This document shows, one piece after another, positions 6,176 to 33,278 of a stretch of DNA of 64,000 bases. The stretch lies in contig JAUNWT010000001.1 of NCBI GenBank assembly GCA_030540195.1, positions 28,598 to 92,597 on the forward strand. Reading direction: 5' to 3'. This stretch comes from Bacillota bacterium. GTDB taxonomy: Bacteria; Bacillota_I; Bacilli_A; Erysipelotrichales; Coprobacillaceae. The notes under the pieces are model-generated. The model was not told the origin of the DNA, made no database searches, and saw only the letters and a list, made by a program, of their open reading frames with translations. Every line of letters begins with the position of its first letter. Positions within the stretch are counted from its first letter, which is position 1. The position numbers and the translations under genes are program-made.

Positions 6176-6195
6176 AGCTATCATTTGGATAGCTC
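6175..6195. terminator. Shared hairpin between convergent WYL and LysR genes
   Basis: GAGCTATC-ATTTG-GATAGCTC followed by TTTT. It overlaps the 3' end of the LysR CDS. Confidence 0.5.
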
Positions 6196-7053: not shown

Positions 7054-7076
7054 AGTCTCACTTCCTTTTTCGTTAT

Positions 7077-7152
7077 TATAACACACTATGAGTTTGAGTT
7101 ATAGTGAGATAATTGAATGATAATGTACTTTTTTTAAAGCACATATTAAAAT
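7077..7152 (+). promoter_or_regulatory. Conserved operator+promoter module, copy A (divergent lysR/flavoprotein region)
   Basis: TATAAC (7077-7082), N15, GTTATA (7098-7103), 19 nt, ATGTAC (7123-7128), 18 nt, TAAAAT (7147-7152). Same layout as copies B-D except that the half-site gap is 15 nt rather than 5. Confidence 0.55.
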
Positions 7153-7182
7153 GAAAATAGTTAAGGAAAAAGGAGAAGAAAA

Positions 7183-7803
7183 ATGAAAGTGTTAATAATT
7201 AATGGAAGTCCTCGCCCAAGAGGAAATACAAAGATTGCCCTCGATGAAATGGTTAAAATCTTTGATCAAGAAGGTATTGAAAGTGAAATTGTGCATGTTG
7301 GAAATAAAGATATTCGAGGATGCATTGCCTGTATGTCATGTAAAACAAGATTAGGTCATTGCGTCTTTGATGATTGTGTCAATGAGATTTCTAAAAAGTT
7401 TGAAGAAGCAGATGGACTTGTGGTTGGAACACCGGTTTATTATGGTTCTGCCAATGCAACCTTAATTGCTTTTCTAACAAGACTGTTCTATAGTACGTCC
7501 TTTGATAAAACGATGAAAGTTGGGGCAAGTGCTATTGTCGCAAGACGTGGGGGAATTTCTTCAACTTATGATGAAATCAATAAATTCTTTGCTATTTCAG
7601 GAATGCCAATTGCTTCTTCACAATATTGGAATTCTATTCATGGAAGAGAAATAGGAGAAGCAAGCCAAGATGAAGAAGGATTACAAACAATGCGTGTTCT
7701 TGCTAGAAATATGTCATTTTTAATGAAATGTATACATGATGGTAAAGAAAAATATGGTTTACCAGAAAAAGAAGAATTTCATCGTACAAACTTTATTAGA
7801 TAA
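7183..7803 (+). CDS. Iron-sulfur flavoprotein (Isf)-like NAD(P)H-dependent FMN reductase family protein
   Basis: 206 aa. MKVLIINGSPRPRGNT flavodoxin-like N-terminus. Compact Cys motif CIACMSCKTRLGHC (CX2CX2CX5C) as in Isf proteins. Confidence 0.8.
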   Translation: MKVLIINGSPRPRGNTKIALDEMVKIFDQEGIESEIVHVGNKDIRGCIACMSCKTRLGHCVFDDCVNEISKKFEEADGLVVGTPVYYGSANATLIAFLTRLFYSTSFDKTMKVGASAIVARRGGISSTYDEINKFFAISGMPIASSQYWNSIHGREIGEASQDEEGLQTMRVLARNMSFLMKCIHDGKEKYGLPEKEEFHRTNFIR

Positions 7804-7812
7804 TAAAAAGAG

Positions 7813-8223
7813 CTAACGCTCTTTTTCGTTATCTAAATTAATTAAATTACTTACATAAGGCTTTTTACCACTTAAAACATCATCATAAAGATTTTGTTTC
7901 CAATCAATATAATCAATACTTTCTTCAAGTTGTTGAATCGTATCTTCAAGACTTTTTCTTTTTCTAGAAAGCATTTCTTGACGTATTTTAATTGTTGAAG
8001 GACCTTGTAAACAAAGAGCCAAGTATTCTTTCATTTCTTGAATACTAAAATCACATTTCTTTAAACAAGAAAGATCTTTGATCCAATTTACATCATGTTC
8101 ATCAAAAATACGACGATTATTTTTCTCTCTTTTTACATTAGGAACAAGTCCTTCATTACAATAATATTTTAAAGTTTGATAAGTCATATCAAGCTTACGA
8201 CAAACTTGCATCATTGTGTACAT
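7813..8223 (-). CDS. MerR family transcriptional regulator (NmlR/AdhR-like)
   Basis: ORF track 7813..8232. Start moved to ATG 8223-8221 (GAGGTGA SD). HTH MQVCRKLDMTYQTLKYYCNEGLV, then a coiled-coil dimerisation helix. Several Cys residues. Confidence 0.85.
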   Translation of the reverse strand: MYTMMQVCRKLDMTYQTLKYYCNEGLVPNVKREKNNRRIFDEHDVNWIKDLSCLKKCDFSIQEMKEYLALCLQGPSTIKIRQEMLSRKRKSLEDTIQQLEESIDYIDWKQNLYDDVLSGKKPYVSNLINLDNEKER

Positions 8224-8253
8224 AAAAATCACCTCAAAAAAATTATATTCTTC

Positions 8254-8284
8254 TTGACCGATAGTTACAACCGTAAATTATAAT
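8254..8284 (+). promoter_or_regulatory. MerR-type promoter with 19-bp spacer upstream of Fe-ADH
   Basis: TTGACC (8254-8259), 19 nt (GATAGTTACAACCGTAAAT), TATAAT (8279-8284). The over-long spacer is the hallmark of MerR-activated promoters. Confidence 0.6.
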
Positions 8285-8322
8285 CACATTGTAATAGATA
8301 AGAGATAAAGGGGGCTTATAAA

Positions 8323-9468
8323 ATGAAAACATTTAATTATTCTTATCCAGTAAAAGTTTATTTTGGAAAAGGAAGTGCAAAAGAAGCTTTTTCAAATGAA
8401 TTAAAGAAATATGGAAGTAAAGTTTTATTAGCTTATGGTGGAGGTTCTATTAAAAATAATGGAATCTATAATGAAATTGTTTCTTTATTAAAAGAAGAAA
8501 AGAAAGAAGTCATTGAATTTAATGGGATTATGTCTAATCCAACGTATAAAAAAGTACAAGAAGGAGTAGAGCTTGTAAAAAAAGAAAAAATTGATTTTAT
8601 TTTAGCTGTTGGTGGAGGAAGTGTCATTGATTGTTGTAAAGTCATTTCTAGCCAAGCAGTTATTGATGAAGATATTTGGGATTTAGAATATGTTCATGGT
8701 AAATTTCCAACAGAAGGGATTCCAATGGGTGCCATCGTGACAGCTTCAGGAACAGGGGCTGAAATGAATGGTGGGGCTGTTATTACTCATGAAGAAAAGA
8801 ATTGGAAAGGTGGTATCTTTGCTTCAACCGCTGACTTTGCAGTTCTTGATCCAGCTTATACCATGACAGTTCCAACAATGCAAGTATTATCAGGTGCCTT
8901 TGATACATTAAGTCATGCTTTAGAAACGTATTTAGGAAATTCAGATCAAGATAATGTTTCAGATGATGTTGCCTTAGCTATTATGAAAAATACCGTTGTG
9001 AATATGAGACGTTTATTAAAAGATATCAATGATGAACAAGCAAGAAGTAATTTGATGTGGGATTCAGCCATGGCTGAAAATGGTATTTTAAAATGTGGTC
9101 GTCAAACAGATTTCCAAGTGCATCAAATTGAACATCAATTAGGCGCTTTTACAGATTGTAACCATGGTCAAGGCTTAGCGGTTATTCAACCGGTTTATTG
9201 TTATCATATTTTAAATGATGCCAGAGAAAAATTAACACGTTTTGCAGAAGTTGTTTTTAATCAAAAAACAGCCGAAGAAGGTTTAGAAGCTCTTCAAAAC
9301 TTCATTAAAGAATGTCATTTACCAACAACTTTACCTGAATTAAAATCTAAAGTTGAAATCACAAATGATTTATTAAAGAAAGTAGCGGATACAACAAACC
9401 TTATCAAAACAAATCCGCGTACTCTTACAAAAGAAGAAGTTTATGATATTTTATTAGAATGCATGTAA
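8323..9468 (+). CDS. Iron-containing (group III) alcohol dehydrogenase, butanol dehydrogenase-like
   Basis: 381 aa. GGGSVIDCCK glycine motif and His-rich metal site region (HALETY, HQIEHQLGAFTDCNHGQG). Confidence 0.9.
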   Translation: MKTFNYSYPVKVYFGKGSAKEAFSNELKKYGSKVLLAYGGGSIKNNGIYNEIVSLLKEEKKEVIEFNGIMSNPTYKKVQEGVELVKKEKIDFILAVGGGSVIDCCKVISSQAVIDEDIWDLEYVHGKFPTEGIPMGAIVTASGTGAEMNGGAVITHEEKNWKGGIFASTADFAVLDPAYTMTVPTMQVLSGAFDTLSHALETYLGNSDQDNVSDDVALAIMKNTVVNMRRLLKDINDEQARSNLMWDSAMAENGILKCGRQTDFQVHQIEHQLGAFTDCNHGQGLAVIQPVYCYHILNDAREKLTRFAEVVFNQKTAEEGLEALQNFIKECHLPTTLPELKSKVEITNDLLKKVADTTNLIKTNPRTLTKEEVYDILLECM

Positions 9469-9493
9469 AAAGCTATCTCGGATAGCTTTTTTT
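9468..9493 (+). terminator. Rho-independent terminator after Fe-ADH
   Basis: AGCTATC-TCG-GATAGCT hairpin followed by T7. Confidence 0.7.
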
Positions 9494-9494
9494 G

Positions 9495-9560
9495 TATAAC
9501 TGTCAGTTATAGTGAGATGATTTATTGATATTGTACTTTTGTTTTTTTGAAATCTACAAT
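9495..9560 (+). promoter_or_regulatory. Conserved operator+promoter module, copy B
   Basis: TATAACTGTCAGTTATA (9495-9511), 19 nt, TTGTAC (9531-9536), 18 nt, TACAAT (9555-9560). Confidence 0.6.
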
Positions 9561-9583
9561 AAAGATGTAAGGAGGAACAAGAT

Positions 9584-10432
9584 ATGGAATATATAACTTT
9601 GACTAATGGTTATCAACTACCGATGTTAGGATACGGTACTTTACATATACCTCCTAAACAAACAAAAGAATGTGTTTTAAAAGCCTTTGAAGCAGGTTAT
9701 CGTTTGATTGATACAGCCGCTTCTTATCAAAATGAAAGAGAAATAGGAAAAGCAATCAAAGAATCGAAGCTTAAAAGAGAAGAAATCTATTTGACAACAA
9801 AGGTTTGGGTTCAAGATGCTGGTTATGAAAATACGCTACAGGCATTTCATCAATCATTAGAAAATCTAGGGGTCGATTATTTAGATCTTTATTTAATTCA
9901 TCAACCTTATGGTGATTATTATGGTTCATGGAAAGCTATGGAAGAACTTTATCAACAAGGAAAAATCAAAGCGATTGGTGTCTGCAACTTTTCACCAGAA
10001 AGACTCATGGATCTTTACATGAATAGTTCCATTCATCCCATGATCAATCAACTTGAATACCATCCTTTCTATCAACAAAAAAATCAAAAATGTGTCTTAA
10101 AACAATGTGATTGTCTCTTAGAAGCTTGGGGTCCTTTAAATGAAGGACAACGTGATATCTTTCATCATCCAATGTTATTAGATATTGCGAAGAAACATCA
10201 AAAATCAGTTTCACAAATTATTCTAAGATGGCATTTAGAAAATCACATTATTGCCATTCCTAAAACCACACATTTAAATCGTATGAAAGAAAATATAGAT
10301 ATTTTTGATTTTCAGTTAGATGAAGAAGATAAAAAACAAATAGAACTACTTGATTTAGGTTATAGTGAAATTATTGATCATCAAAATTATATGACCGCAA
10401 AATGGCTTAATAAATATAAAATACATGATTAA
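9584..10432 (+). CDS. Aldo/keto reductase (AKR paralog 1)
   Basis: 282 aa. [34 protein letters not shown] signatures. SD AAGGAGG. Confidence 0.9.
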   Translation: MEYITLTNGYQLPMLGYGTLHIPPKQTKECVLKAFEAGYRLIDTAASYQNEREIGKAIKESKLKREEIYLTTKVWVQDAGYENTLQAFHQSLENLGVDYLDLYLIHQPYGDYYGSWKAMEELYQQGKIKAIGVCNFSPERLMDLYMNSSIHPMINQLEYHPFYQQKNQKCVLKQCDCLLEAWGPLNEGQRDIFHHPMLLDIAKKHQKSVSQIILRWHLENHIIAIPKTTHLNRMKENIDIFDFQLDEEDKKQIELLDLGYSEIIDHQNYMTAKWLNKYKIHD

Positions 10433-10446
10433 AAGGAGAAAGGAAT

Positions 10447-11211
10447 ATGTTATTTTACTTTACAGGTACAGGGAATAGTTTGTATGTGGCGAGACAAATT
10501 GAAGAAAAGCCTATCAGTATTCCGCAAGTCTTACATCAAGAAAACTTAAATTTTAAAGATGAAAAAATTGGAATCGTTTATCCTGTTTATGCCGGAGAAG
10601 CACCTAAAATTGTCTTAGAGTTTTTAGAAAAAGCAACATTTGAAACAGATTATTTTTATTTGATTTTAACTTATGGAAAAGATGTCACAGATGCTCCTGA
10701 ATGCATAGCGCGTTTACTTGAAGAAAAAGGAAAACACGTTAATTATATTCATTCTATTTTAATGGTAGATAATTACTTGCCATCCTTTGATATGAATGAA
10801 CAAAGAGCCATGAATAAAAACGTTGAACAACAAATTCAACAAGCACTTCAAGATATCCAAAACAAAAAAGAAGAAATTCCTGAAGCAACACAAGCAGGGA
10901 GAGATTTCCATGCTTCTGCCAAAGAAATCTTTGCGAAAAATCCAGAACTCATTAATGGTGAACAAATTACGGTAACCGATCAATGTGTAGGTTGTGGTAT
11001 TTGTACAAAGGTTTGTCCAAGAGGACTCTTCTATGTTGAAAATAAAAAAGCGAAGAGAAAACAAAATACCTGTGAATTTTGTTTAGCGTGTGCACAAAAC
11101 TGTCCATCTAAAGCCATTATCACAAAATTGAAAGATGCCAATCCTAATGCCCGTTATAGACATGAAAAAGTAAGTCTAAAAGATATTATTGAAGCAAATC
11201 AACAAGTATAA
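10447..11211 (+). CDS. Flavodoxin-like domain fused to 2x[4Fe-4S] ferredoxin domain (EFR1-type)
   Basis: 254 aa. MLFYFTGTGNSLYVA flavodoxin-type N-terminus. CVGCGICTKVCP and CEFCLACAQNCP ferredoxin motifs. Confidence 0.75.
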   Translation: MLFYFTGTGNSLYVARQIEEKPISIPQVLHQENLNFKDEKIGIVYPVYAGEAPKIVLEFLEKATFETDYFYLILTYGKDVTDAPECIARLLEEKGKHVNYIHSILMVDNYLPSFDMNEQRAMNKNVEQQIQQALQDIQNKKEEIPEATQAGRDFHASAKEIFAKNPELINGEQITVTDQCVGCGICTKVCPRGLFYVENKKAKRKQNTCEFCLACAQNCPSKAIITKLKDANPNARYRHEKVSLKDIIEANQQV

Positions 11212-11272
11212 CTGACAGTTATACTAACATGCACTATTTATATTGTACATTTATAGAATTTAAAACTAAAAT
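11207..11272 (+). promoter_or_regulatory. Conserved operator+promoter module, copy C
   Basis: TATAACTGACAGTTATA (11207-11223, overlapping the TAA stop of the upstream gene), 19 nt, TTGTAC (11243-11248), 18 nt, TAAAAT (11267-11272). No terminator precedes it. Confidence 0.6.
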
Positions 11273-11298
11273 AAAGATAGAAATTGGAGGAGATAATA

Positions 11299-12139
11299 AT
11301 GAAAACTTTTGAATTAAATAATAAACAAACAATCCCAGCAGTAGGATTTGGGGTCTTCATGATTCCTAATGATGGACCTACTTACGAAGCAACTTTAGCT
11401 GCTTTAAAAGCAGGATATCGTCATATTGATACAGCTGCTGGTTATTGTAATGAAAGTGATGTTGGAAAAGCCATTAAAGATAGTGGTATTGATCGTTCAG
11501 AAATCTTTATTACTTCTAAATTATGGTTACAAGATTATGGTTATGAAAATGCGAAAAAAGGTATTGAAACTTCTATGAAATTATTAGGAGTTGATTATAT
11601 TGATCTTTATTTATTACATCAACCATATGGTGATTATTTAGGAGCTTGGAAAGCTTTAGAAGAAGCTTATCAAGCAGGTAAAATCAAATCTATTGGTATT
11701 TCTAATATTACTGTGAACTTATGGAATAAATTTAAAGATGGTATGACAGTAATGCCAGCAGTCAACCAAGTAGAATTTAACCCATTTGTGCAACAAAAAG
11801 AATTAAGAAAAGTGATGGCTGAAAACGATATTCGTTTAGAAGCATGGTATCCATTAGGACATGGAAATAAAGATTTATTAGAAAATGAAACAATCGTTTC
11901 ATTAGCTAAAAAATATAATAAAAATGCCGGTCAAATTATCTTAAGATGGATTTATCAAGAAGGCGTTATTTCTTTACCTAAATCTACAAATGAAGAAAGA
12001 ATGAAAGGAAACATTGATATCTTTGATTTTGAATTAACAGATGAAGAAATGAAAGCAATGCAAGCCTTAGATACAAACAAACCATCTCATAATCCTGAAG
12101 ATCCTGCCAACGAAACACGTTTAATGGGATTAAAAATTC

Positions 12140-12147
<8 letters not shown>
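11299..12147 (+). CDS. Aldo/keto reductase (AKR paralog 2)
   Basis: ORF track 11284..12147. ATG 11299 preferred (GGAGGAG SD upstream). GYRHIDTAAGYCNE, IDLYLLHQP, QIILRW motifs. Confidence 0.9.
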
Positions 12148-13836
<1,689 letters not shown>

Positions 13837-13845
13837 TAAAAAAGA

Positions 13846-13874
13846 TTGTAACCGTTTTAATTTTGTGATATTAT
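13846..13874 (+). promoter_or_regulatory. Promoter of bgl operon with overlapping cre-like site
   Basis: TTGTAA (13846-13851), 17 nt, extended -10 TGATATTAT (13866-13874). TGTAACCGTTTTAA (13847-13860) matches cre consensus TGWAANCGNTNWCA at 13 of 14 positions. Confidence 0.5.
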
Positions 13875-13889
13875 GTTCGAGTAGTTTAT

Positions 13890-13970
13890 AGGATAGTGAT
13901 TGTTTAAGTACAAGCTAAACCTGTTTATTGCCACCCTTTTTAAGTGCGCAATAAATAGGTTTTTATTTTT
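13890..13970 (+). promoter_or_regulatory. RAT (ribonucleic antiterminator) element overlapping an intrinsic terminator
   Basis: GGATAGTGATTGTTTAAGTACAAGCTAAACCT resembles the BglG/LicT RAT consensus (GGATTGTNACTG...GCAGGCAAAACCT). Its 3' end overlaps hairpin CCTGTTTATTGC (13920-13931) / GCAATAAATAGG (13948-13959), which is followed by a T-run. Confidence 0.7.
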
Positions 13971-13982
13971 GGAGGGGTGATT

Positions 13983-14822
13983 ATGGAAATAAGCAAAGTT
14001 TTAAACAACAATGTAGCTGTCGTTATTGAAAATAACGAAGAAAAGATTGTGATGGGTCGAGGAATCTGTTTTAAAAAGAAAACAGGAGATATAATTGAAC
14101 CAGAAAAAATAGATAAAGTTTTTTATTTACAAAACCAAGAAGTCTTAAGTCGTTTTAAAGAACTTGTGGTGGATATTCCTTTAGAATATTTAGAAATCGG
14201 TGAAGAAATTATGGATGAAGCAAGATTAAGTTTAGGAAAAGCTTTAAATGATAATATCTTTATTTCCATGGTTGATCATATTTATACCGCTGTTGTTAGA
14301 GCGAAAGATGATATTTTAGTGAAGAATGCTTTATTATGGGATATTCAAAGATTTTATAAAGAAGAATATCAAATAGGGAAAAAAGCTCTTGAGATTATTG
14401 AAAAGAAAACAGGAGTTCTTTTACCAAATGATGAAGCAGGATTTATTGCCTTACATATTGTCAATGGACAATTAGATGAAGATGTTCATGATATGTATGA
14501 AATTACGAAGATCATGCAAGAAATCGAAAATATTGTTCGTTATCACTTCAAGATAGAATTTAATGAAGAAAGTGCTTATTACTATCGTTTTATTACCCAT
14601 TTGAAATTCTTTGCACAACGTTTAGTTGAACATAAAAAACAAAACAAACAAGAAGATGATTTGTTGGAAGTGGTTCAAGTAAAATATGCCAATGCTTATC
14701 AATGTGTCGAAAAAATTGCGATGTACATAAAAAATCAATATAACTATGAACTTTATGACGAAGAAAAACTTTATTTAACGATCCATATACATCGTGTAGT
14801 TTATCTTGGAAATAGTCATTAA
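13983..14822 (+). CDS. licT: BglG/LicT family PRD-containing transcription antiterminator
   Basis: ORF track 13977..14822. ATG 13983 preferred (GGAGGGG SD). CAT domain MEISKVLNNNVAVVIENNEEKIVMGRGICF followed by two PRD domains. Confidence 0.9.
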   Translation: MEISKVLNNNVAVVIENNEEKIVMGRGICFKKKTGDIIEPEKIDKVFYLQNQEVLSRFKELVVDIPLEYLEIGEEIMDEARLSLGKALNDNIFISMVDHIYTAVVRAKDDILVKNALLWDIQRFYKEEYQIGKKALEIIEKKTGVLLPNDEAGFIALHIVNGQLDEDVHDMYEITKIMQEIENIVRYHFKIEFNEESAYYYRFITHLKFFAQRLVEHKKQNKQEDDLLEVVQVKYANAYQCVEKIAMYIKNQYNYELYDEEKLYLTIHIHRVVYLGNSH

Positions 14823-14888
14823 TTGGATGGTGACATTAAGTTGGCCAAACCTTCAAATTTCAATACTTTAGAAAGATGGAGGAAAATT

Positions 14889-16772
14889 ATGAGTAAGTAT
14901 GAAAATTTAGCCAAAGAAATTTTGGAAAATGTTGGTGGAAAGGAAAACATCAACAGCTTAACACATTGTGTTACAAGATTACGTTTTCGTTTAAAAGACG
15001 AATCAAAAGCCAATGATGAAGCATTAAAAAATAATCCAGGTGTTGTCACTGTGATGAAATCAGCAGGACAATATCAAGTTGTTATTGGAAATCATGTTCC
15101 TTTAGTATACGCAGACGTCTGTGAACTTGCCGGTATTAGTAATGGAACTCAACAAGAAGAAGATGAAGCACCTCAAGGACTTTTTAATAAGTTGATTGAT
15201 GTTATTTCAGGATGTTTCCAACCTATTTTAGGACCATTATGTGCAGCTGGGATCATTAAAGGATTAAATGCTTTATTAGTCTTTATTTTAGGATCAAGTT
15301 TCAATAATAGTGGAACATATATAATTTTAAATGCCATTGGTGATTCTATTTTTAACTTTTTACCAATTATTTTAGGATATACCGCAGCTAAAAAATTCAA
15401 TGTCAATGTTGTTGTCGGAATGATCATTGGAGCAACACTTTGTTATCCAACAATTCAAACAGATACATTGTCAGCTGCAGGAAAAGCAATTGGAACATTA
15501 CCATTGATTGGATCTTATTATACAAAATTCATTGGTATTCCATTTGTTTCAGGTAACTATACAAGTACTGTTGTACCTGTTATCTGTATTGTTGCTTTAG
15601 CGGCTCAAATTCAAAAAATTGCGAAGAAATTTGTACCTGAAATGTTACAAAACTTCTTTGTGCCATTCTTTGTTTTAATTATTTCACTTCCAATTGGTTT
15701 ACTTGTTATTGGACCAGTTGTAAGTTTATTAACAACAGTTTTATCAAATATGTTTGCTGGACTTTATGCTTTTTCACCAATCGTAACAGCTTTTGTCATT
15801 GGAGCATTATGGCAATGTTTAGTTATCTTTGGTTTACATTGGGCACTCGTTCCAATGGCGATGGTCAATATTGGAAACTTAGGATATGATACAATTTTAC
15901 CAGGTATGTTAGGAACAACATTTGCGGCAACAGGTGTTCTTGCAGCGATGTATTTAAAATTAAAAGATGAAAACAAAAAAGCACTTGCAATCCCAGGTGT
16001 GATTTCTGCATTCTGTGGGGTAACAGAACCAGCTATTTATGGTTTCTTATTACCTGAAAAAACACCATTTGTTTTCTCTTGTATCGGTGGTGCTGTTGGT
16101 GGTGCCATTATGGGAACAGTTGCGGCTAAACAATATGTTATTGGTGGACTTGGAATCTTTAGTGTTGTAAACTTCATTTCACCAAAAGGAGATGCAACTG
16201 GTATGATCGTTTCATTAATTGCGGGAGCTGTTTCATTAGTTGTTGGTTTTGTTTTAACAATTATTTTCTATAAAACAAATGATCAACAAGTTGAAAATAA
16301 AGAAGCAACAAAATTAGAAAAAGAAACAATTTTATCGCCAATTAAAGGAGAAGTAAAACCAATCGAAGAATCAAGCGATGCTGCTTTTGCATCAGGTGCT
16401 TTAGGAAAAGGTGTTGTTATTTTACCAGAAGAAGGAAAAGTATATGCTCCTGTGACTGGTACGATTACTGTTTTATTCCCAAGTTTACATGCAATTGGTA
16501 TTACCAGTGATGCAGGTGTTGAATTACTTATTCACATTGGTATTAATACCGTACAACTTAATGGTGAAGGCTTTACTGCCCATATTAAACAAGGTGATCA
16601 AATTAAACAAGGTCAATTACTTGTTGAATTTGATATGAATAAAATTAAAGAAGCCGGTTATTCTTTAGAAACTCCTGTTTTAGTCACAAATTATGCAGAT
16701 TTAAAAGAAGTTAAAAATACAAAGGCTTCATCTGTACAATTACAAGAAACTTTAATAGAAGTTAAATACTAA
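14889..16772 (+). CDS. PTS beta-glucoside-family transporter, EIIBCA
   Basis: ORF track 14823..16772. ATG 14889 preferred (GGAGG SD at 14878-14882; typical N-terminus MSKYENLAKEILENVGGKENI). EIIB Cys motif LTHCVTRLRF, multi-TM EIIC, C-terminal EIIA (LIHIGINTV). Confidence 0.9.
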   Translation: MSKYENLAKEILENVGGKENINSLTHCVTRLRFRLKDESKANDEALKNNPGVVTVMKSAGQYQVVIGNHVPLVYADVCELAGISNGTQQEEDEAPQGLFNKLIDVISGCFQPILGPLCAAGIIKGLNALLVFILGSSFNNSGTYIILNAIGDSIFNFLPIILGYTAAKKFNVNVVVGMIIGATLCYPTIQTDTLSAAGKAIGTLPLIGSYYTKFIGIPFVSGNYTSTVVPVICIVALAAQIQKIAKKFVPEMLQNFFVPFFVLIISLPIGLLVIGPVVSLLTTVLSNMFAGLYAFSPIVTAFVIGALWQCLVIFGLHWALVPMAMVNIGNLGYDTILPGMLGTTFAATGVLAAMYLKLKDENKKALAIPGVISAFCGVTEPAIYGFLLPEKTPFVFSCIGGAVGGAIMGTVAAKQYVIGGLGIFSVVNFISPKGDATGMIVSLIAGAVSLVVGFVLTIIFYKTNDQQVENKEATKLEKETILSPIKGEVKPIEESSDAAFASGALGKGVVILPEEGKVYAPVTGTITVLFPSLHAIGITSDAGVELLIHIGINTVQLNGEGFTAHIKQGDQIKQGQLLVEFDMNKIKEAGYSLETPVLVTNYADLKEVKNTKASSVQLQETLIEVKY

Positions 16773-16796
16773 AAATGAAGGTATTGGAGGGATCAT

Positions 16797-17495
16797 ATGA
16801 ATAGACCTTATGTCATATGCCATATGTTGCAATCAATAGATGGTAAAATTGCGGGTGGTTTCTTTAGAGAAAAACAAACATTAGAACTTGCGAAGATTTA
16901 TAGTGACATTTCTAAAGACTATAACGGAGATGCAATCATTTATGGTACAACAACCGCTAAAGAAATGTTTTCAAGTTCTAAAACAACACCTGTTTTAAAT
17001 CAAAAACCTATTCAAAAAATAGACTATATTTATAAAGATGATAAAAAGAAATGGATCGTGGTGATTGATCCTCAAGGTCAAATTTCTTTTGATCAATCGG
17101 TTTATCAAAATCCAAGACTTAAAGATAAAAATTTAATCGTAATTCTTACAGAAAATATTTCCAGACAATACCTAGAAACATTAAAGTCATTAAATATTTC
17201 TTATTTATTTACTGGTAAAGAAGAAATAGATTTAAAACTTGCTTTAGAAAAGCTTTATGATTTATTTTCTATTAAAAAGCTTTTATTACAAGGTGGCGGA
17301 ATTACGAATACCTATTTTATTAAAGAAGATTTAATAGATGAATTAAGTCTTGTTGTTTCTCCTGTTGTATCAGGAGAAGAAAAACAACCTAATATTTTTG
17401 AAGATTGTCATGAATATATAGGACAAACATTTGATTTAAAACAAAGTGATCTCTTAAGAAAATCAGGTTTATATTTAAAATATGTAAGAAAATAG
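16797..17495 (+). CDS. RibD C-terminal domain / dihydrofolate-reductase-like family protein
   Basis: 232 aa. N-terminus MNRPYVICHMLQSIDGKIAG and LLLQGGGITN motif typical of RibD_C-type reductases. SD GGAGGG. Confidence 0.7.
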   Translation: MNRPYVICHMLQSIDGKIAGGFFREKQTLELAKIYSDISKDYNGDAIIYGTTTAKEMFSSSKTTPVLNQKPIQKIDYIYKDDKKKWIVVIDPQGQISFDQSVYQNPRLKDKNLIVILTENISRQYLETLKSLNISYLFTGKEEIDLKLALEKLYDLFSIKKLLLQGGGITNTYFIKEDLIDELSLVVSPVVSGEEKQPNIFEDCHEYIGQTFDLKQSDLLRKSGLYLKYVRK

Positions 17496-17518
17496 TGGGA
17501 CTCAGGTCTCACTTTTTT
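17495..17518 (+). terminator. Rho-independent terminator after bgl operon
   Basis: GTGGGAC-TCAG-GTCTCAC hairpin (one G-U pair) followed by T6. Confidence 0.65.
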
Positions 17519-17520
17519 AG

Positions 17521-17586
17521 TATAACTGTCAGTTATACATGGATGTATTATTGATATTGTACATTTAAAAAAGTAATAGCTAAAAT
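17521..17586 (+). promoter_or_regulatory. Conserved operator+promoter module, copy D
   Basis: TATAACTGTCAGTTATA (17521-17537), 19 nt, TTGTAC (17557-17562), 18 nt, TAAAAT (17581-17586). Confidence 0.6.
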
Positions 17587-17608
17587 GGAATTAGAAAGGG
17601 GGATTGAT

Positions 17609-18196
17609 GTGAGAAAAGTAATTGATGTAGGGATGATGATTTTATTATTACTTTTAATGGCTTTTCCATTTACTGGACAAGATATTCACATTTTTTTGGG
17701 AATAATCATGCTTATTTTCTTTATTATTCATCATTATTTAAATAAAAGATGGTATTTGAGTTTATTTAAAGGTAAGAAAACAAAAATAAAAATACTATTT
17801 ATGATCATTAATAGTTTATTACTTATAAGTATATTGGGTGTTGCGCTCAGTGGTTTAACACTTGCTGGATATGTGCCTATCATGTCCTATTTTCTAGCAA
17901 GAAAGATGCATTTAGTATGTTCTTATTGGAGTTATTTACTCATGGGATTACATGTGGGCTTGCATCTACAAGTTACAAAGATGATTAAAAATCAAATCAT
18001 TGTTTATGGAATAATGCTTATAGGAATTATTTTATTTACGAAAAATCAAATACTTATTTATTTGTTGAATATGTCTGATTTTTTATATGTAAGTAATCAA
18101 ATGAATATCGTTATTTATATGTTTGAATATTTGATGATCTTTATTTTATTTGTATTATTCATGAATGTCATCATAAAGGAGATGAAGAAGAAATGA
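17609..18196 (+). CDS. DUF4405-like polytopic membrane protein (cytochrome-b-like, His-rich TM helices)
   Basis: ORF track 17585..18196. ATG 17585 lies inside the predicted -10 box, so in-frame GTG 17609 (AAAGGGGG SD 5-6 nt upstream) is preferred. TM His residues in DIHIFLG, IIHHYLNKRW, KMHLVCSYW, GLHVGLH. Confidence 0.6.
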   Translation: MRKVIDVGMMILLLLLMAFPFTGQDIHIFLGIIMLIFFIIHHYLNKRWYLSLFKGKKTKIKILFMIINSLLLISILGVALSGLTLAGYVPIMSYFLARKMHLVCSYWSYLLMGLHVGLHLQVTKMIKNQIIVYGIMLIGIILFTKNQILIYLLNMSDFLYVSNQMNIVIYMFEYLMIFILFVLFMNVIIKEMKKK

Positions 18197-18831
18197 AAAA
18201 GAAAATATTAATTGTACTTGCAGTTGTTTGCATTATTGTAGCGGGTGCGGGTTATTATTTTTATCGCACACAAAGAAATGTAAGTGTTGGTTTAAATAAA
18301 CGTATTCAAGATGAAAATGGTAAAAAAGGAAAGACTTCTTTAGAAAGCTCTAAAGTATTAGTGGTTTATTTTTCTAATGGGGGAAATACTCAAAAACTTG
18401 CAAAAGAAATTTATAATCAAGTTGGAGGAGATTTTAGACAAATTAAACCAGTAAAAGCTTATCCTAAAGGAAATAAACTTTATGATTATACAAAAAATGA
18501 ACAGGAAAAAAATGGGCGACCAAAACTAAAAGACTTAAATATTGATATAAGTCACTATGATACGATTTTTATTGGTTATCCTATTTGGTGGTATACCTAT
18601 CCACAAATTATTTTGAGTTTCTTCGATCAATATGATTTAAGTAATAAAACAATTATTCCTTTTGTGACACATGGTGGTAGTGGTATGTCAGGAACAAAAG
18701 AAGATATGGAAGAATATTTAAAAGATAAAAGTGTAACTGTAAAAGAAGGACTTGCTGTAAGTCGAACAGATATTGAAAAGAGTCAAAAGGAAACAGTTGA
18801 AAATTGGTTAAAGGAGCTTGGTTATGAATGA
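18193..18831 (+). CDS. Flavodoxin-family protein with N-terminal signal-anchor helix
   Basis: 212 aa. MKKK plus a hydrophobic helix (ILIVLAVVCIIVAGAGYYFY), a linker, then flavodoxin fold (KVLVVYFSNGGNTQKLAKEI, IGYPIWWYTYP). Start overlaps the upstream stop. Confidence 0.75.
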   Translation: MKKKILIVLAVVCIIVAGAGYYFYRTQRNVSVGLNKRIQDENGKKGKTSLESSKVLVVYFSNGGNTQKLAKEIYNQVGGDFRQIKPVKAYPKGNKLYDYTKNEQEKNGRPKLKDLNIDISHYDTIFIGYPIWWYTYPQIILSFFDQYDLSNKTIIPFVTHGGSGMSGTKEDMEEYLKDKSVTVKEGLAVSRTDIEKSQKETVENWLKELGYE

Positions 18832-19717
18832 GTCTACTAAAATAAATGATATTTTAAACAATCTGTTATTTAAAGATATAGGACAATTTCTATTTCCAAC
18901 AGATTTTTATTCAATCACAAATACCATGACTTTAAAAGATGTAGATCATCTACTTCCTTATCATAGTCATATTGAAGTAGATACAACTTTAGAAGTATTA
19001 GAATATTTAGAAAAGCAAAGAAAACAAGGAAATCAAGTATTCTATGATATCTATACAGAAAAAGAAAAACAAGCAGATCCTTCTAAAAGAAAAACAGGAT
19101 TATTCTTTTTCAAAGGAAAGAAAAATGCACCTTTTGCCATCGTTAATGCAGGTGGTGGTTTTAGCTATGTTGGTTCGATTCATGAAAGTATGCCTCATGC
19201 CCTTTATTTATCAAAACAAGGCTACAATGGTTTTGCCTTACAATATCGTACAGGTGGAGCGGATGTCGCATGTGTTGATCTTGCAAGAGCAATTGAATTT
19301 ATCTTTGAACATGCCAAAGAATTAGAAATTGATACAAATTGTTATTCTTTATGGGGTGGTTCTGCCGGAGCAAGAATGGCTGCTTATTTAGGAAGCTATG
19401 GCACTATTTCTTTTGGTGGAAAATATTTACCAAAACCAGGAACAGTAGTTATGCAATATACGGGACATAGTGATTATACAAAAAATGAACCACCAACTTT
19501 TGTATGTGTTGGTGAAAATGATGGGATCGCTTCTTGGCGTGTTATGGAAAGAAGAATTCATATTTTAAAACATCAAGGGGTTGATGTTGAATTCCACAAA
19601 TATCCTTCTTTAGGACATGGTTTTGGTTTAGGTATTCATACAAGTGCTAAAGGATGGATCAATGATGCCATTCATTTTTGGCAAAAACAAATAGATAAAG
19701 GAGAAGATGAAAAATGA
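18824..19717 (+). CDS. Alpha/beta hydrolase (esterase/lipase-like)
   Basis: ORF track 18818..19717. ATG 18824 preferred (AAGGAG SD 7 nt upstream). Nucleophile elbow WGGSAGA (G-x-S-x-G) and C-terminal LGHGFG. Confidence 0.8.
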   Translation: MNESTKINDILNNLLFKDIGQFLFPTDFYSITNTMTLKDVDHLLPYHSHIEVDTTLEVLEYLEKQRKQGNQVFYDIYTEKEKQADPSKRKTGLFFFKGKKNAPFAIVNAGGGFSYVGSIHESMPHALYLSKQGYNGFALQYRTGGADVACVDLARAIEFIFEHAKELEIDTNCYSLWGGSAGARMAAYLGSYGTISFGGKYLPKPGTVVMQYTGHSDYTKNEPPTFVCVGENDGIASWRVMERRIHILKHQGVDVEFHKYPSLGHGFGLGIHTSAKGWINDAIHFWQKQIDKGEDEK

Positions 19718-20274
19718 GAAAGAATTTTGGAGCACAACCTTATTTATATCCACAACCAGTGATGATTATTGGAACATATGATGAAAATGGCAAAGCAAAT
19801 GCGATGAATGCTGCGTGGGGAGGAATTGTTGGTAGAGATGAAATCATGATCGATTTATCTTCACATAAAACAACAAAGAACTTAGAAGTTACCAAAGCAT
19901 TTACTGTAAGTGTGGCAGATACAAAACATTTAGTTGCTTGTGATTATGTTGGGGTAGAATCTGCCAACAATTGTGAAAATAAAATGGAAAAGGCTGGATT
20001 TACAACAGTTAAAAGTGAATTTGTGAATGCACCTATTATCAATGAACTTCCTCTTACTTTAGAATGTGAATTAGTAAAAGTAATTGATGGAAGTAAGTAT
20101 TTAGGACGTATTGTTAATGTAAGTATTGATGAAGAAGTTTTAGGAGAAGATGGTAAGTTAAGTTTAGAAAAATTTAAACCTATTACTTTTGATACGATCC
20201 ATGGACAATATATTGAATTAGGAAAATGTGTAGGAAAAGCATTTCATGATGGTTTACAATTAAAAAATAAATAG
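19714..20274 (+). CDS. Flavin reductase family protein (Flavin_Reduct domain)
   Basis: 186 aa. ATGA overlap with the upstream gene. PVMIIGTYDENGKANAMNAAWGG is typical of the FMN-binding split-barrel flavin reductase family. No signal peptide. Confidence 0.8.
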   Translation: MRKNFGAQPYLYPQPVMIIGTYDENGKANAMNAAWGGIVGRDEIMIDLSSHKTTKNLEVTKAFTVSVADTKHLVACDYVGVESANNCENKMEKAGFTTVKSEFVNAPIINELPLTLECELVKVIDGSKYLGRIVNVSIDEEVLGEDGKLSLEKFKPITFDTIHGQYIELGKCVGKAFHDGLQLKNK

Positions 20275-20286
20275 GAGATTAATTCT

Positions 20287-20922
20287 ATGACAAAAAAATT
20301 AAAAATATTTTTGATTGCCTTAGTTGTTATTATTGCGGGTGTTGGTGGTTACTTGGTTTATAATTCACAAAAATCTTCTACAACAGAAGAAAAAGTTGTT
20401 ACAAATGAAACCAAATCATCGACAAAGAAAGTACAAGGTGATGGTAAAACTTTAGTGGTTTATTATTCAGCACAAAATCATACCAAAGATGTTGCTGAAA
20501 AAGTTGCTGAAAATTTAGGAGCAGATCTTTTTGAAATTGAACCTAAAGAAAAATACACGGAAGATGATCTAGACTGGACGAATGATGATTCAAGAGTGAC
20601 AAGAGAACATGAAGATACATCTTTAAGAAATATAGAATTAAAAACAACAGAAGTAGAAAACTGGGATCAATATGATACCGTGCTTATTGGTTATCCTATT
20701 TGGTGGGGTATTGCGGCATGGCCTGTTGATACATTTGTTAAGAATAATGATTTTTCTAATAAAACGGTTATTCCTTTCTGTACTTCTGCTTCATCAGGTC
20801 TAGGTGAAAGTGGTACAAAGCTTCAAAAAGAAGCAAAAGGTGGTAATTGGCAAAAAGGACAAAGATTTAGTTCAAGTCCATCTGATTCTACAATTAAAGA
20901 TTGGGCAGATAGTTTAAAATAA
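20287..20922 (+). CDS. Flavodoxin-family protein with N-terminal signal-anchor helix (paralog of 18193..18831)
   Basis: 211 aa. MTKKLK plus helix IFLIALVVIIAGVGGYLVY, a Ser/Thr/Lys-rich linker, then KTLVVYYSAQNHTKDVAEKV and IGYPIWWGIAAWP. Confidence 0.75.
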   Translation: MTKKLKIFLIALVVIIAGVGGYLVYNSQKSSTTEEKVVTNETKSSTKKVQGDGKTLVVYYSAQNHTKDVAEKVAENLGADLFEIEPKEKYTEDDLDWTNDDSRVTREHEDTSLRNIELKTTEVENWDQYDTVLIGYPIWWGIAAWPVDTFVKNNDFSNKTVIPFCTSASSGLGESGTKLQKEAKGGNWQKGQRFSSSPSDSTIKDWADSLK

Positions 20923-20979
20923 GGCATTATTTAATAAATGCCGAATTGTCGAAAAAAGTGCCGAAAATAATAAGAATAG

Positions 20980-21009
20980 AGTTCGTGTTTTATAAACATG
21001 AACTTTTTT
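20980..21009 (+). terminator. Rho-independent terminator after redox operon
   Basis: AGTTCGTGTTT-TAT-AAACATGAACT hairpin (one G-U pair) followed by T6. Confidence 0.7.
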
Positions 21010-21012
21010 CAT

Positions 21013-21078
21013 TTTACATAAACTTAACATAAACCATACGTTCTTTTGATTTTTGAATGTGTTGAAAAACACTATGAT
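21013..21078 (+). promoter_or_regulatory. Pho box array and -10 of pstS promoter
   Basis: Hexamers on an 11-bp period: TTTACA (21013), TTAACA (21024), CATACG (21035), TTGATT (21046), matching the PhoP box TT(A/T/C)ACA-N5. TATGAT -10 at 21073-21078. No canonical -35. Confidence 0.6.
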
Positions 21079-21149
21079 ATGGGTGTCTTAAGAAAAGGAA
21101 ACAAAAACAAATAATATCTTAAGAGAAAACAAAGGAAGGTAAATAAAAA

Positions 21150-21983
21150 ATGAAAAAGAAAGTATTAAGTGTTTTAATGGTTTTCATGATGTGTTTAGGT
21201 TTAGCCGGATGTGGCGGAGGATCAAGTAGTGCATCAGATGACATTAGTGGAAAGGTAAGTTTAAACGGATCAACTTCAATGGAAAAATTCGTCAATGCCT
21301 TATCAGAAGGAATTAAAGAAAAATATCCAAACTTACAATTAGAAGCACAATTTACAGGATCAGGTGCAGGTCTAGAAGCAGTTGCATCAAAAACAACAGA
21401 TATCGGAGATTCATCTCGTGCTTTAACTGATGATGAAAAAGCAAAGGGATTAGAAGAAAATATCGTCGCTATCGATGGTATCGCAATGATTACTAACAAA
21501 TCTAATAAAGTAACAAACTTAACAAAAGATCAATTAGCTCAAATCTATACAGGACAAATTACTAACTGGAAAGATTTAGGTGGACAAGATGAAGCAATCG
21601 TTGTTATCGGACGTGAAGCTGGTTCAGGAACTCGTGGAGCTTTCGAAGAATTATTAGGAATTGAAGATCAATGTCAATATGCTCAAGAATTAAATGAAAC
21701 TGGTGCTGTTCTTGCTAAAGTTGCTAAAACTTCTGGATCAATCGGTTATGTTTCATTAGATGTATTAGATGATACAGTTGCTCCTCTTCAATTAGATGGT
21801 GTTGAACCTAGTGAAAAAACTGTTAAAGATGGAAGCTATGCTTTACAAAGACCATTCGTAATGGCTACAAATGGAAAAATCAGTGAACAATCTAAACAAG
21901 TTCAAGCAGTATTTGATTTCATCAACAGTAAAGATGGACAAAAAATCATTGAAAAAGTTGGATTAGTAACACCAAATAAATAA
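21150..21983 (+). CDS. pstS: Phosphate ABC transporter substrate-binding lipoprotein
   Basis: 277 aa. Lipobox LAGCGG. PBP-like fold motifs (GSGAG, GREAGSGTRGAF). First gene of the pst operon. Confidence 0.9.
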   Translation: MKKKVLSVLMVFMMCLGLAGCGGGSSSASDDISGKVSLNGSTSMEKFVNALSEGIKEKYPNLQLEAQFTGSGAGLEAVASKTTDIGDSSRALTDDEKAKGLEENIVAIDGIAMITNKSNKVTNLTKDQLAQIYTGQITNWKDLGGQDEAIVVIGREAGSGTRGAFEELLGIEDQCQYAQELNETGAVLAKVAKTSGSIGYVSLDVLDDTVAPLQLDGVEPSEKTVKDGSYALQRPFVMATNGKISEQSKQVQAVFDFINSKDGQKIIEKVGLVTPNK

Positions 21984-22002
21984 AAATAAAGAGGGAAGTA
22001 TT

Positions 22003-30036: not shown

Positions 30037-32370
30037 ATGAATTGTTTATATCAAACAAAAAGAATTTCTGATTTAAAAGAAAAGATGTTAAGTAGTAAAC
30101 GTTATGCTTCTATTGAACAAGCACGAATCATTACATGTGTTTATCAAGAAAATGAAGATCTATCTATTCCTAAAAAAAGAGCTTTATCTTTAAAAGCAGC
30201 TTTAGAAGAATTAGAGATAGCTGTTGAAGATGAAGAATTGATTGTGGGAAATCGTACCAAAGGTGTACGTTATGGTGTTGTTTTTCCTGAAAGTGGATGT
30301 TCTTGGATCAACCAAGAATTTGAAACATTACCAACAAGACCACAAGATCAGTTTTTAGTAAAAGAAGAAGATATCAAAGAATTTAGAGAAAAGATTTATC
30401 CTTATTGGCAAGGAAAATCTTTAGAAGATGCGATTAAAGGAACTTATGGAAAAGAAATTAATGAAATAAGTAAAGTGGTGAAAATCAATCAAAAGGATCA
30501 TGCCCAAGGTCATATTTGTCCAAACAGTGCTTTATGGTTAAAATTAGGTCCACAAGGATTAATTGAAAAGGCAAAAGAGAAGTTAAAGAATTGTCAAGAA
30601 GATCAAAAAGAATTTTATGAATGTACGATTCTTGTCTTAGAAGGGACGATTCATTTTATGCAAAGATATCATGATTTGATTGTTCAAGAAAATCATGAAG
30701 AACTTCAAGAAGTAGGAAAAATTTGTTTCAATCTTTCTAAAAGACCACCAGAAACATTTCATGAGGCTGTGCAATCTCTTTGGTTTTTATTTGTGATATT
30801 ACATATGGAATCGAATGCTTCTTCTTTTTCACCAGGAAGATTAGATCAATATCTTTATCCTTATTATCAAAGAGATATAGAAAATGGCATTTTAGATCAA
30901 CAAAAAGCCTTAGAAATATTAGAATGCTTATGGTTGAAATTCAATCAAATTGTTTATTTAAGAAATCAAAACAGTGCTAAGTATTTTGCGGGATTTCCAA
31001 TAGGATTTAATATTGCGATAGGAGGCGTTGATGAAAAGGGGAATGATACGTACAATGAACTCTCTTTGCTTTGTTTAAAAGCACAAGAACATTTAGGCTT
31101 ACCACAACCGAATCTTTCTGTGAGACTTAATAAAAATACATCTCATGAATTAATGCAAGCCGCAATCAAAGTTGTTTCACTTGGCAGTGGAATGCCACAA
31201 TTTTTCAATGATGAAGCGATTATTCATTCAATGATTGAAGATTTAGATATTGAAGAAAAAGATGCGCGAAATTATGCCATTGTTGGTTGTGTTGAACTAA
31301 CAACGCATGGAAATAATTTAGGATGGTCTGATGCCGCAATGTTTAACTTTAATAAAGTACTCGAATTAACGCTTAATCATGGAAGATGTTTATTAACGAA
31401 TAAACAAATAGGTCTTGATTTAGGAAGCTTAGAAACTTATGAAACATATCAAGACTTAGAAAAGGCTTTTCAAAAACAAATTGATTATTTTATTGATAAA
31501 ATGATGGATGCTGAAAAAGTAGTTGAAAAAGCACATCAAGATTATTTGCCAACCGCTTTTCTATCAACGGTCATCGATGATTGTTTAGAAAAAGGTTTAG
31601 ATGTTACACGTGGTGGCGCTAAATATAATCTATCAGGAATTCAAATGATTCAAGTAGCTAATCTTGCTGATTCTTTAGCGGCAATTAAAGAACTTGTTTA
31701 TCAAGAAAAAATGATTTCTAAACATGAATTATTAGAAGCTCTTAAGGCAGATTTTAAAGGTTATGAGATTATTCAAACCATGCTTTTAAATAAAGTTCCT
31801 AAATATGGAAATGATGTAGCATGGGTCGATGAACTTGGAAGTAAGTGGACAAGTTATTTTAGAGAAAAAATGAAACATTATACAAATTATCGTGGTGGTC
31901 GTTATCATACTGGAATGTATACCGTCTCAGCTCATGTACCAATGGGCGAAAATGTAGGGGCCTCTCCTGATGGTAGAAATGCTTTAAAACCACTGGCTGA
32001 TGGAGGAATGTCACCTGTTTATGGAAGAGATAAACAAGGACCAACGGCGGTTTTAAAATCTGTTTCAAGATTGAATAATTCATGTACAACCAATGGGGGC
32101 TTGCTTAATATGAAATTCTTACCGGAATTCTTTAAAACAGAAACAGGATGCTTGAAATTTGAAAACTTTTTACGTGCTTTTGTGGATTTGAAAGTACCCC
32201 ATATCCAATTTAACGTAGTAAGAAAAGAAGAATTATTAGACGCTAAAGTCCATCCAGAAAACCATCAATCATTAACGATTCGTGTAGCAGGTTATACGGC
32301 TTATTTTGTAGAATTAGCAGGTAAATTACAAGATGAAATCATTGAAAGAACAACCTATGAAAACATCTAA
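30037..32370 (+). CDS. Glycyl radical enzyme, PFL2/glycerol-dehydratase (eliminase) family
   Basis: 777 aa. C-terminal glycyl radical motif TIRVAGYTAYF (Gly752 at 32290-32292). Cys loop VGCVE with a single Cys418 (31288-31290) and Glu420, not the PFL Cys-Cys pair. SD AAAGGAGG. Confidence 0.9.
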   Translation: MNCLYQTKRISDLKEKMLSSKRYASIEQARIITCVYQENEDLSIPKKRALSLKAALEELEIAVEDEELIVGNRTKGVRYGVVFPESGCSWINQEFETLPTRPQDQFLVKEEDIKEFREKIYPYWQGKSLEDAIKGTYGKEINEISKVVKINQKDHAQGHICPNSALWLKLGPQGLIEKAKEKLKNCQEDQKEFYECTILVLEGTIHFMQRYHDLIVQENHEELQEVGKICFNLSKRPPETFHEAVQSLWFLFVILHMESNASSFSPGRLDQYLYPYYQRDIENGILDQQKALEILECLWLKFNQIVYLRNQNSAKYFAGFPIGFNIAIGGVDEKGNDTYNELSLLCLKAQEHLGLPQPNLSVRLNKNTSHELMQAAIKVVSLGSGMPQFFNDEAIIHSMIEDLDIEEKDARNYAIVGCVELTTHGNNLGWSDAAMFNFNKVLELTLNHGRCLLTNKQIGLDLGSLETYETYQDLEKAFQKQIDYFIDKMMDAEKVVEKAHQDYLPTAFLSTVIDDCLEKGLDVTRGGAKYNLSGIQMIQVANLADSLAAIKELVYQEKMISKHELLEALKADFKGYEIIQTMLLNKVPKYGNDVAWVDELGSKWTSYFREKMKHYTNYRGGRYHTGMYTVSAHVPMGENVGASPDGRNALKPLADGGMSPVYGRDKQGPTAVLKSVSRLNNSCTTNGGLLNMKFLPEFFKTETGCLKFENFLRAFVDLKVPHIQFNVVRKEELLDAKVHPENHQSLTIRVAGYTAYFVELAGKLQDEIIERTTYENI

Positions 32371-33262: not shown

Positions 33263-33278
33263 AAAGGAGAAAAGAAAA

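Follow-up and report, generated by a model that had tools for sequence, protein, structure and literature searches.

Within the 64,000-nucleotide stretch of DNA analysed here (the window), which comes from a gut Faecalibacillus (Coprobacillaceae, Erysipelotrichales), a closely packed group of five genes on the plus strand at ca. 17.5–21.0 kb encodes a membrane protein of the DUF4405 family, two membrane-anchored flavodoxins of the Flavodoxin_4 family, an alpha/beta hydrolase and a Flavin_Reduct protein. The genus was assigned indirectly, from the grouping of CysS with F. faecis in a 90% cluster. We regard it as somewhat probable (roughly 55%) that these genes specify a relay in which a cytoplasmic flavoprotein would hand electrons, by way of two haems b in the DUF4405 protein, to surface-anchored flavodoxins with non-covalently bound flavin mononucleotide (FMN), and from there to an extracellular acceptor. 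The candidate for the cytoplasmic flavoprotein that would reduce the inner haem is the flavoredoxin-like Flavin_Reduct protein, with NAD(P)H as the ultimate source of its electrons. Electrons would cross the membrane via two bis-histidine haems b, at predicted sites near the cytoplasmic face (His41 and His115) and near the outer face (His27 and His101), and would then pass to the two anchored Flavodoxin_4 proteins on the outer surface. Since both flavodoxins lack the loop that is flavinylated by ApbE, their FMN would be held non-covalently, and would presumably be loaded outside the cell. We infer the direction of flow, the donor and the terminal acceptor from the genes.

The list of open reading frames (ORFs) and the Pfam matches bear out the five genes of the preliminary description, with their strand and location. 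The gene junctions are, in order, -4, -8, -4 and +12 nt, and a Shine-Dalgarno sequence precedes each gene. A terminator-like hairpin (20978–21006, plus strand) stands at the end of the operon, so that the single tight unit with overlapping genes and a terminator at 20980 that had been proposed is also what we find. Another such hairpin (17494–17513, plus strand; 8-bp stem, T-run) lies 3’ of the upstream RibD_C gene and is kept in two related loci, L004 and L001. It closes the RibD_C gene and sets the operon apart as a transcription unit of its own. Upstream of the operon are, besides RibD_C, a BglG-type antiterminator and a PTS EIIBCA gene. A terminator-like site at 17867–17887, within the DUF4405 gene, was rejected as a chance occurrence; the region has six such sites compared with 2.4 expected. 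The same five-gene set is present in L004, a 92%-identical relative, and the set is kept in a rearranged form in L001 (ca. 70% identity).

Two start codons were corrected. The DUF4405 gene begins at GTG 17609, preceded by GAAAGGGGG, giving a protein of 195 amino acids; the ATG at 17585 which opens the longest ORF is probably not used, because the predicted -10 box (17581–17586) overlaps it, because the corresponding ATG of L004 does not share the reading frame, and because in relatives the gene opens at the GTG and most homologues are 195 amino acids long. The hydrolase gene begins at ATG 18824 (297 amino acids), 7 nt past AAGGAG. The leader of the operon is only about 15 nt, and a search of positions 6000–22000 against Rfam matched no riboswitch or other RNA element.

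The DUF4405-family protein (17609–18196, plus strand) is predicted, from the structural model and the alignment of its homologues, to be a six-helix, two-haem b cytochrome. An exhaustive HMMER search returned 1876 representative relatives at E ≤ 0.001; homologues at 32–33% identity carry PF14358, the Pfam DUF4405 domain, and fused relatives score 37–44 bits. An alignment of 50 sequences shows no variation at His27, His41, His101 or His115 and almost none at His119 (195-residue numbering). The AlphaFold2 model (predicted local distance difference test 95.6, predicted template modelling score 0.90) has helices at residues 2–17, 19–44, 59–85, 94–119, 129–145 and 167–194. Helix 2 carries His27 and His41 and helix 4 carries His101 and His115, with a spacing of 14 residues in each pair; as these two helices are parallel, one histidine pair falls in each leaflet, which is the classical two-haem b arrangement. 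The histidine motifs that had been pointed out within membrane helices (DIHIFLG, IIHHYLN, KMHLVCSYW and GLHVGLH) are all present. The three loops predicted to be inside, and the C-terminal end, contain lysine and arginine residues; these cluster in the loops behind helices 2 and 4 and at the C-terminus, which indicates an N-in, C-in topology. Haem b binding has been reported for a purified DUF4405 protein from a member of the Oscillospiraceae (PMC11334425).

The conservation of this gene set was assessed in 80 loci from different species, found with a 10-sequence alignment and containing 76 DUF4405 genes at 28–41% identity. Represented among them are Ruminococcus, Lachnospiraceae, Oscillospiraceae, Solobacterium, Mogibacterium, Brachyspira and metagenome-assembled genomes of Chloroflexi; genes were counted as adjacent if within 150 bp on the same strand. 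Flavodoxin_4 is adjacent or fused to 51 of the 76 DUF4405 genes. The adjacent Flavodoxin_4 proteins comprise 33 lipoproteins and five with another signal or anchor, and the exported form is far more often without a flavinylation motif (34) than with one (4). Candidate cytoplasmic donors recur as neighbours, namely FMN_red (28 loci), signal-less flavodoxins (28 loci) and Flavin_Reduct (8 loci). TetR, Fe-ADH, MerR and aldo-keto reductase genes are also recurrent, which resembles the surroundings of the operon in the window itself. The preliminary description would have given way had the neighbourhood been peculiar to this strain; the association is kept in many species. Of the co-occurrences which it had suggested counting, that of DUF4405 with Flavodoxin_4 is thus widespread, whereas Flavin_Reduct accompanies it in the eight loci only.

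The Flavin_Reduct protein of the window (19714–20274, plus strand) is a cytoplasmic, flavoredoxin-like split-barrel FMN protein. It scores 57.1 bits in Pfam against a gathering score of 27, and its residues 1–183 match Desulfovibrio flavoredoxin over the full length (E = 4e-30; PDB 2D5M); the two are alike as split-barrel FMN proteins and differ in their physiological partners. A precedent for such a donor is the cytosolic flavin reductase Fre, which reduces the membrane haemoprotein MsrQ (PMC12525009).

The protein encoded between flavodoxin 1 and the Flavin_Reduct protein (18824–19717, plus strand) is an alpha/beta serine hydrolase resembling BD-FAE and Abhydrolase_3, with a GGSAG motif at the nucleophile elbow. 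It had been described as cytoplasmic, and a signal peptide is indeed absent both here and in L004; the orthologues in related loci are, on the other hand, lipoproteins. Lipoboxes occur on hydrolase orthologues beside DUF4405 in four loci (L001:6853-7863, L044:7675-8697, L049:4821-5813 and L054:3765-4733), from which we conclude that the hydrolase of these relatives acts outside the cell. In the Faecalibacillus lineage the enzyme thus seems to have moved to a different compartment.

Electrons might alternatively come from the quinone pool. The DUF4405 protein would then oxidise menaquinol, as do two-haem proteins of the cytochrome b561/NarI type, and deliver the electrons to the surface flavodoxins, while the Flavin_Reduct protein and the hydrolase would be co-regulated detoxification enzymes outside the chain. 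Members of the family do match Ni_hydr_CYTB (PF01292) weakly, below threshold, the DUF4405 protein has no cytoplasmic domain, and the presence of Flavin_Reduct at only 8 of the 76 related loci fits this explanation. The recurrence of small cytoplasmic flavoproteins beside DUF4405 (FMN_red and signal-less flavodoxins) speaks against it, as does recent work on the analogous MsrQ, which argues against a quinol donor (PMC12525009). We consider both the quinol-fed chain and the exclusion of these two enzymes from it unlikely, although they survive better than the other alternatives.

The far end of the proposed relay consists of two proteins of similar design. Flavodoxin 1 (18193–18831, plus strand) has an N-terminal anchor at residues 5–23, a linker and a Flavodoxin_4 domain, and flavodoxin 2 (20287–20922, plus strand) has its anchor at residues 7–25, followed by a Ser/Thr/Lys-rich linker and the same domain; in both, the hydrophobic N-terminal helix follows MKKK or MTKKLK. 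The Pfam scores for Flavodoxin_4 (PF12682) are 103.3 and 139.3 bits, respectively, against a gathering score of 24, and both proteins align with the structures 4J8P, 4ICI and 3KLB through the phosphate loop and the PIWW motif (E-values of 1e-30 to 1e-33). The distance from strand 1 to PxWW is 73 and 80 residues in the two window proteins. In unflavinylated proteins it is 70–80 residues, and in flavinylated ones, which carry D-A-x-T-S-A-S, it is 98; the window flavodoxins therefore lack the flavinylation insertion. They share with the cytosolic Flavodoxin_4 proteins that bind FMN non-covalently (3KLB, 4ICI, 4J8P) the domain itself, the length of the FMN loop, the PxWW motif and the absence of this insertion, and are unlike them in possessing an N-terminal membrane anchor and linker, so that the domain is very probably exported.

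Nor was the flavin transferase itself found. Pfam finds no ApbE among the five operon genes, and an ApbE-like ORF was not seen in the window among ORFs of at least 130 amino acids, whose translations were read and, for selected ORFs, searched with Pfam. The earlier remark that no ApbE was visible thus agrees with our results within this range. In the related loci, 94 neighbouring ORFs with a signal were searched with Pfam, and the families that recurred, namely DUF362 (12), CMD (10), ArsP_1 (8) and Cupin (6), did not include ApbE.

On comparative evidence both flavodoxin domains are very probably extracytosolic. The outward orientation had initially been argued from the positive-inside rule. 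That reasoning is good for flavodoxin 2, in which the charges flanking the anchor are +4 and 0, and is ambiguous for flavodoxin 1, which has +4 on both sides; for the latter protein we deduce the topology from homology to fusion proteins and not from the charge rule. In natural fusions the DUF4405 core is followed by a seventh helix and then by FMN_bind, FGE-sulfatase or Flavodoxin_4. Thus in P0152 the seventh helix precedes an FMN_bind domain with the flavinylation motif DAVSGAT, in P0162 and P0164 it precedes a flavinylated Flavodoxin_4, in P0044 and others FGE-sulfatase plus an unflavinylated Flavodoxin_4, and in P0045 it is followed by a lipobox and a cyclophilin-like domain. Since ApbE substrates are extracytosolic, the domains C-terminal to the seventh helix must lie outside. 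Residues 22–181 of flavodoxin 1 align with residues 252–431 of P0162 (E = 3e-15), beginning at the juxtamembrane segment (YFYRTQRNVSV versus YFNRHFKTVEV) and with a 25-residue gap in flavodoxin 1 exactly opposite the flavinylation loop of P0162. The window thus has, as two separate genes, what is joined in such a DUF4405-flavodoxin fusion. The closest outside homologues of flavodoxin 2 (60–68% identity) carry lipoprotein signal peptides. The outward-facing domains of the preliminary description are in this way supported by the fusions, the P0162 alignment and the lipoprotein relatives. Flavodoxin 1 itself was ruled out as a lipoprotein: its Cys13 falls halfway along the hydrophobic helix, without a lipobox.

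The same observations make it quite improbable that the flavodoxins are tethered to the membrane and face the cytoplasm, as parts of a membrane-associated reductase or detoxification complex with no electron transfer across the membrane. Such a complex would account for the equal charges around the anchor of flavodoxin 1, for the lack of flavinylation in both proteins, as in the known cytosolic family members, for the signal-less nature of the nearest solved structures and for the many cytosolic reductases in the neighbourhood. It is at odds with the lipoboxes on orthologue-level relatives of flavodoxin 2, with the 33 lipoproteins among the adjacent flavodoxins of related loci, and with the fusions, which put the flavodoxin after the seventh helix in the same position as the flavinylated FMN_bind. 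Flavodoxin 1 aligns with one of those fusions from the juxtamembrane segment onwards, and the MKKK and MTKKLK N-termini are typical of an N-in orientation.

Several results count against the relay that we propose. The window protein scores 25.9 bits for Pfam DUF4405 (PF14358), slightly below the gathering score of 26.7. A Foldseek comparison of its model with the Protein Data Bank (PDB) gave no match at E ≤ 0.001, nor did a profile of 50 homologues give one at E ≤ 10 against PDB sequences; with no related solved structure, the haem geometry has no template for comparison. Flavodoxins exported by the Sec route would need to take up FMN outside the cell; export of the folded, FMN-loaded proteins by the twin-arginine (Tat) pathway was considered and ruled out, as the motif occurs in 0 of 46 lipoprotein flavodoxins among the relatives. 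The extracytosolic flavodoxins described by others show signs of covalent flavinylation (PMC11334425). Finally, Flavin_Reduct is found at only about 10% of related loci, so that the donor is not fixed.

As to regulation, the operon is preceded by the last of four copies of a promoter module (copy 4; 17519–17597, plus strand; 79 nt), which is kept upstream of the DUF4405 gene in L004. It consists of the palindrome ATAACTGTCAGTTAT (17522–17536), which is of the T-N11-A type, a -35-like TGTACA (17558–17563) and the -10 sequence TAAAAT (17581–17586). The perfect palindrome occurs exactly three times in the 64 kb, at 9496, 11208 and 17522, and every copy heads a conserved module of about 79 nt. Its centre is ca. 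65–70 nt upstream of the predicted transcription start, to be compared with the 65–75 nt expected for the T-N11-A site of a LysR-type regulator. All the remaining copies are on the plus strand. Copy 1 (7085–7163), with a degenerate palindrome, is located in the divergent intergenic region between a LysR gene and an FMN_red gene (7183–7803), upstream of the latter; copy 2 (9493–9571) stands before an aldo-keto reductase gene at 9584 and the gene of a flavodoxin-like 4Fe-4S protein at 10447; and copy 3 (11205–11283) stands before three aldo-keto reductase genes (11284–13836). The candidate regulator of the four modules is the LysR-family protein encoded at 6181–7086 on the minus strand. A MerR gene is also near the modules, and in related loci LysR genes neighbour DUF4405 in 16 cases.

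The “LysR module D” to which the operon had been assigned is therefore a real promoter module, copy 4; no LysR gene adjoins it, the candidate gene lying 10.5 kb upstream. The operon is linked to that gene because the promoter module is shared, which is the sole basis of the link, and control by the LysR protein is a reasonable inference from these sequences. One putative LysR regulon would then embrace the DUF4405 operon, the FMN_red gene, the gene of the flavodoxin-like 4Fe-4S protein and the four aldo-keto reductases. The sharing of the module with these reductases suggests a role in the response to carbonyl, quinone or redox stress, and the likeliest task of the operon would be to reduce an extracellular oxidant or electrophile, for example a quinone-like compound, within a carbonyl/redox-stress regulon. 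The four aldo-keto reductase genes (9584–13836) are paralogous (repeat families D1–D3), are interrupted by the gene of the flavodoxin-like 4Fe-4S protein, and sit downstream of a MerR gene and an Fe-ADH gene.

Least credible of all is the absence of any conduit, with the exported flavodoxin-fold proteins binding or scavenging environmental flavin, or the DUF4405 protein and a flavodoxin together sensing redox state for a regulator: MerR genes abut DUF4405 genes, one MerR domain is fused to DUF4405-FGE (P0138) and the operon encodes no terminal reductase, but the four invariant haem-ligand histidines and the redox-domain fusions point to electron transfer, and Pfam finds no transporter or signalling domain in the operon.

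The partnership at the centre of the proposed relay was already known: DUF4405 was described as a cytochrome, and Flavodoxin_4 as its extracytosolic partner, by Huang et al. (mSystems 2024; PMC11334425). The preliminary description had taken the flavodoxin-fold partners as a departure from known systems and the whole as uncharacterised; with the partnership and the binding of haem b both published, its central idea is anticipated. We found nothing beyond that paper in the literature on Flavodoxin_4/PF12682 or on FGE-sulfatase with flavodoxin. The window operon resembles the clusters of Huang et al. in its six-helix, four-histidine DUF4405 protein, in the extracytosolic Flavodoxin_4, in its occurrence in the Firmicutes and in the proposed transfer of electrons across the membrane. 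It differs from them in having neither apbE nor a flavin transporter, in flavodoxins whose strand 1 and helix 1 are not separated by the loop bearing the flavinylated serine, in its partners, a flavoredoxin-like protein and an alpha/beta hydrolase, and in its place within a putative LysR-type regulon that includes aldo-keto reductases. Among the 76 relatives sampled, moreover, exported flavodoxins are more often unflavinylated than flavinylated. What is new here is a DUF4405/Flavodoxin_4 module without ApbE or covalent flavin attachment, and a putative regulon common to it and the aldo-keto reductases.

A functional parallel is offered by MsrPQ and Fre of E. coli (PMC12525009), in which the haem b membrane protein takes its electrons from a distinct flavin reductase of the cytosol and hands them to an extracytoplasmic redox partner, as in the chain proposed for the window. 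MsrQ differs in belonging to the ferric-reductase-domain (FRD) family and in having as partner a molybdoenzyme of known substrate, and Fre, which is of the FNR type, differs from the split-barrel Flavin_Reduct protein of the window. The DUF4405 protein is not a member of the FRD family, there being no Pfam FRD match and no match to PDB sequences or by Foldseek; no similarity to MsrQ is detectable in sequence or fold, and the likeness is functional only.

Other gene arrangements were noted during the comparison. P0044 and P0091 are polypeptides of ca. 720–790 amino acids in which DUF4405 and a seventh helix are joined to a SUMF1-like FGE-sulfatase domain and to a Flavodoxin_4 without flavinylation. 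DUF4405-FGE-Flavodoxin_4 fusions are found in loci L017, L018, L024, L026, L027, L029, L032, L055, L067, L068 and L080, and are common among rumen and gut Firmicutes. Their domain order suggests that the cytochrome feeds electrons to an extracytoplasmic FGE-like enzyme in strict anaerobes. In P0138 a MerR DNA-binding domain is N-terminal to DUF4405-FGE, and MerR genes overlap DUF4405 starts in several loci (L022:6567-6971), an arrangement which may point to a redox-responsive regulator tethered to the membrane. Just downstream of DUF4405 genes, a DUF362 lipoprotein (12 loci) recurs paired with an ArsP_1-type permease (8 loci), for example at L082:6929-8909, L060:4669-5754 and L022:12996-14520. 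In locus L007 (GCA_964428795.1; 2750–10950) a distant DUF4405 gene (32% identity) is situated among three signal-less Flavodoxin_4 genes, with CMD, aldo-keto reductase, cupin and SDR genes as further neighbours and an adjoining relaxase gene; this cluster may represent the same set of redox genes in mobile form. Elsewhere in the window (30037–33959) genes for a glycyl-radical enzyme (777 amino acids), its activase and a transaldolase/FSA-like protein lie behind a DeoR regulator.

A broader proposal, which we put forward more tentatively and at rather less than even odds, is that gut and rumen Firmicutes widely use an ApbE-independent conduit, in which DUF4405 would reduce Sec-exported, lipid- or helix-anchored flavodoxins with non-covalent FMN at the cell surface. 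In Faecalibacillus it would form the part, located at the cell surface, of a carbonyl/quinone-stress regulon under LysR control, and elsewhere it would power the fused FGE-sulfatase-like enzymes. If true, this would contradict the idea that flavoproteins outside the cytosol depend on covalent flavinylation. If the relay proposed for the window operon is right, DUF4405 cytochromes would also function without ApbE, in what is the commoner arrangement among the relatives sampled. It would add to the known routes by which electrons are moved out of fermentative gut Firmicutes. An abundant genus of the human gut would then possess a defined, regulated gene set, comprising the LysR-type module, the aldo-keto reductases and the FMN reductase, which can be tested for the reduction of quinones, dietary electrophiles and other extracellular oxidants.

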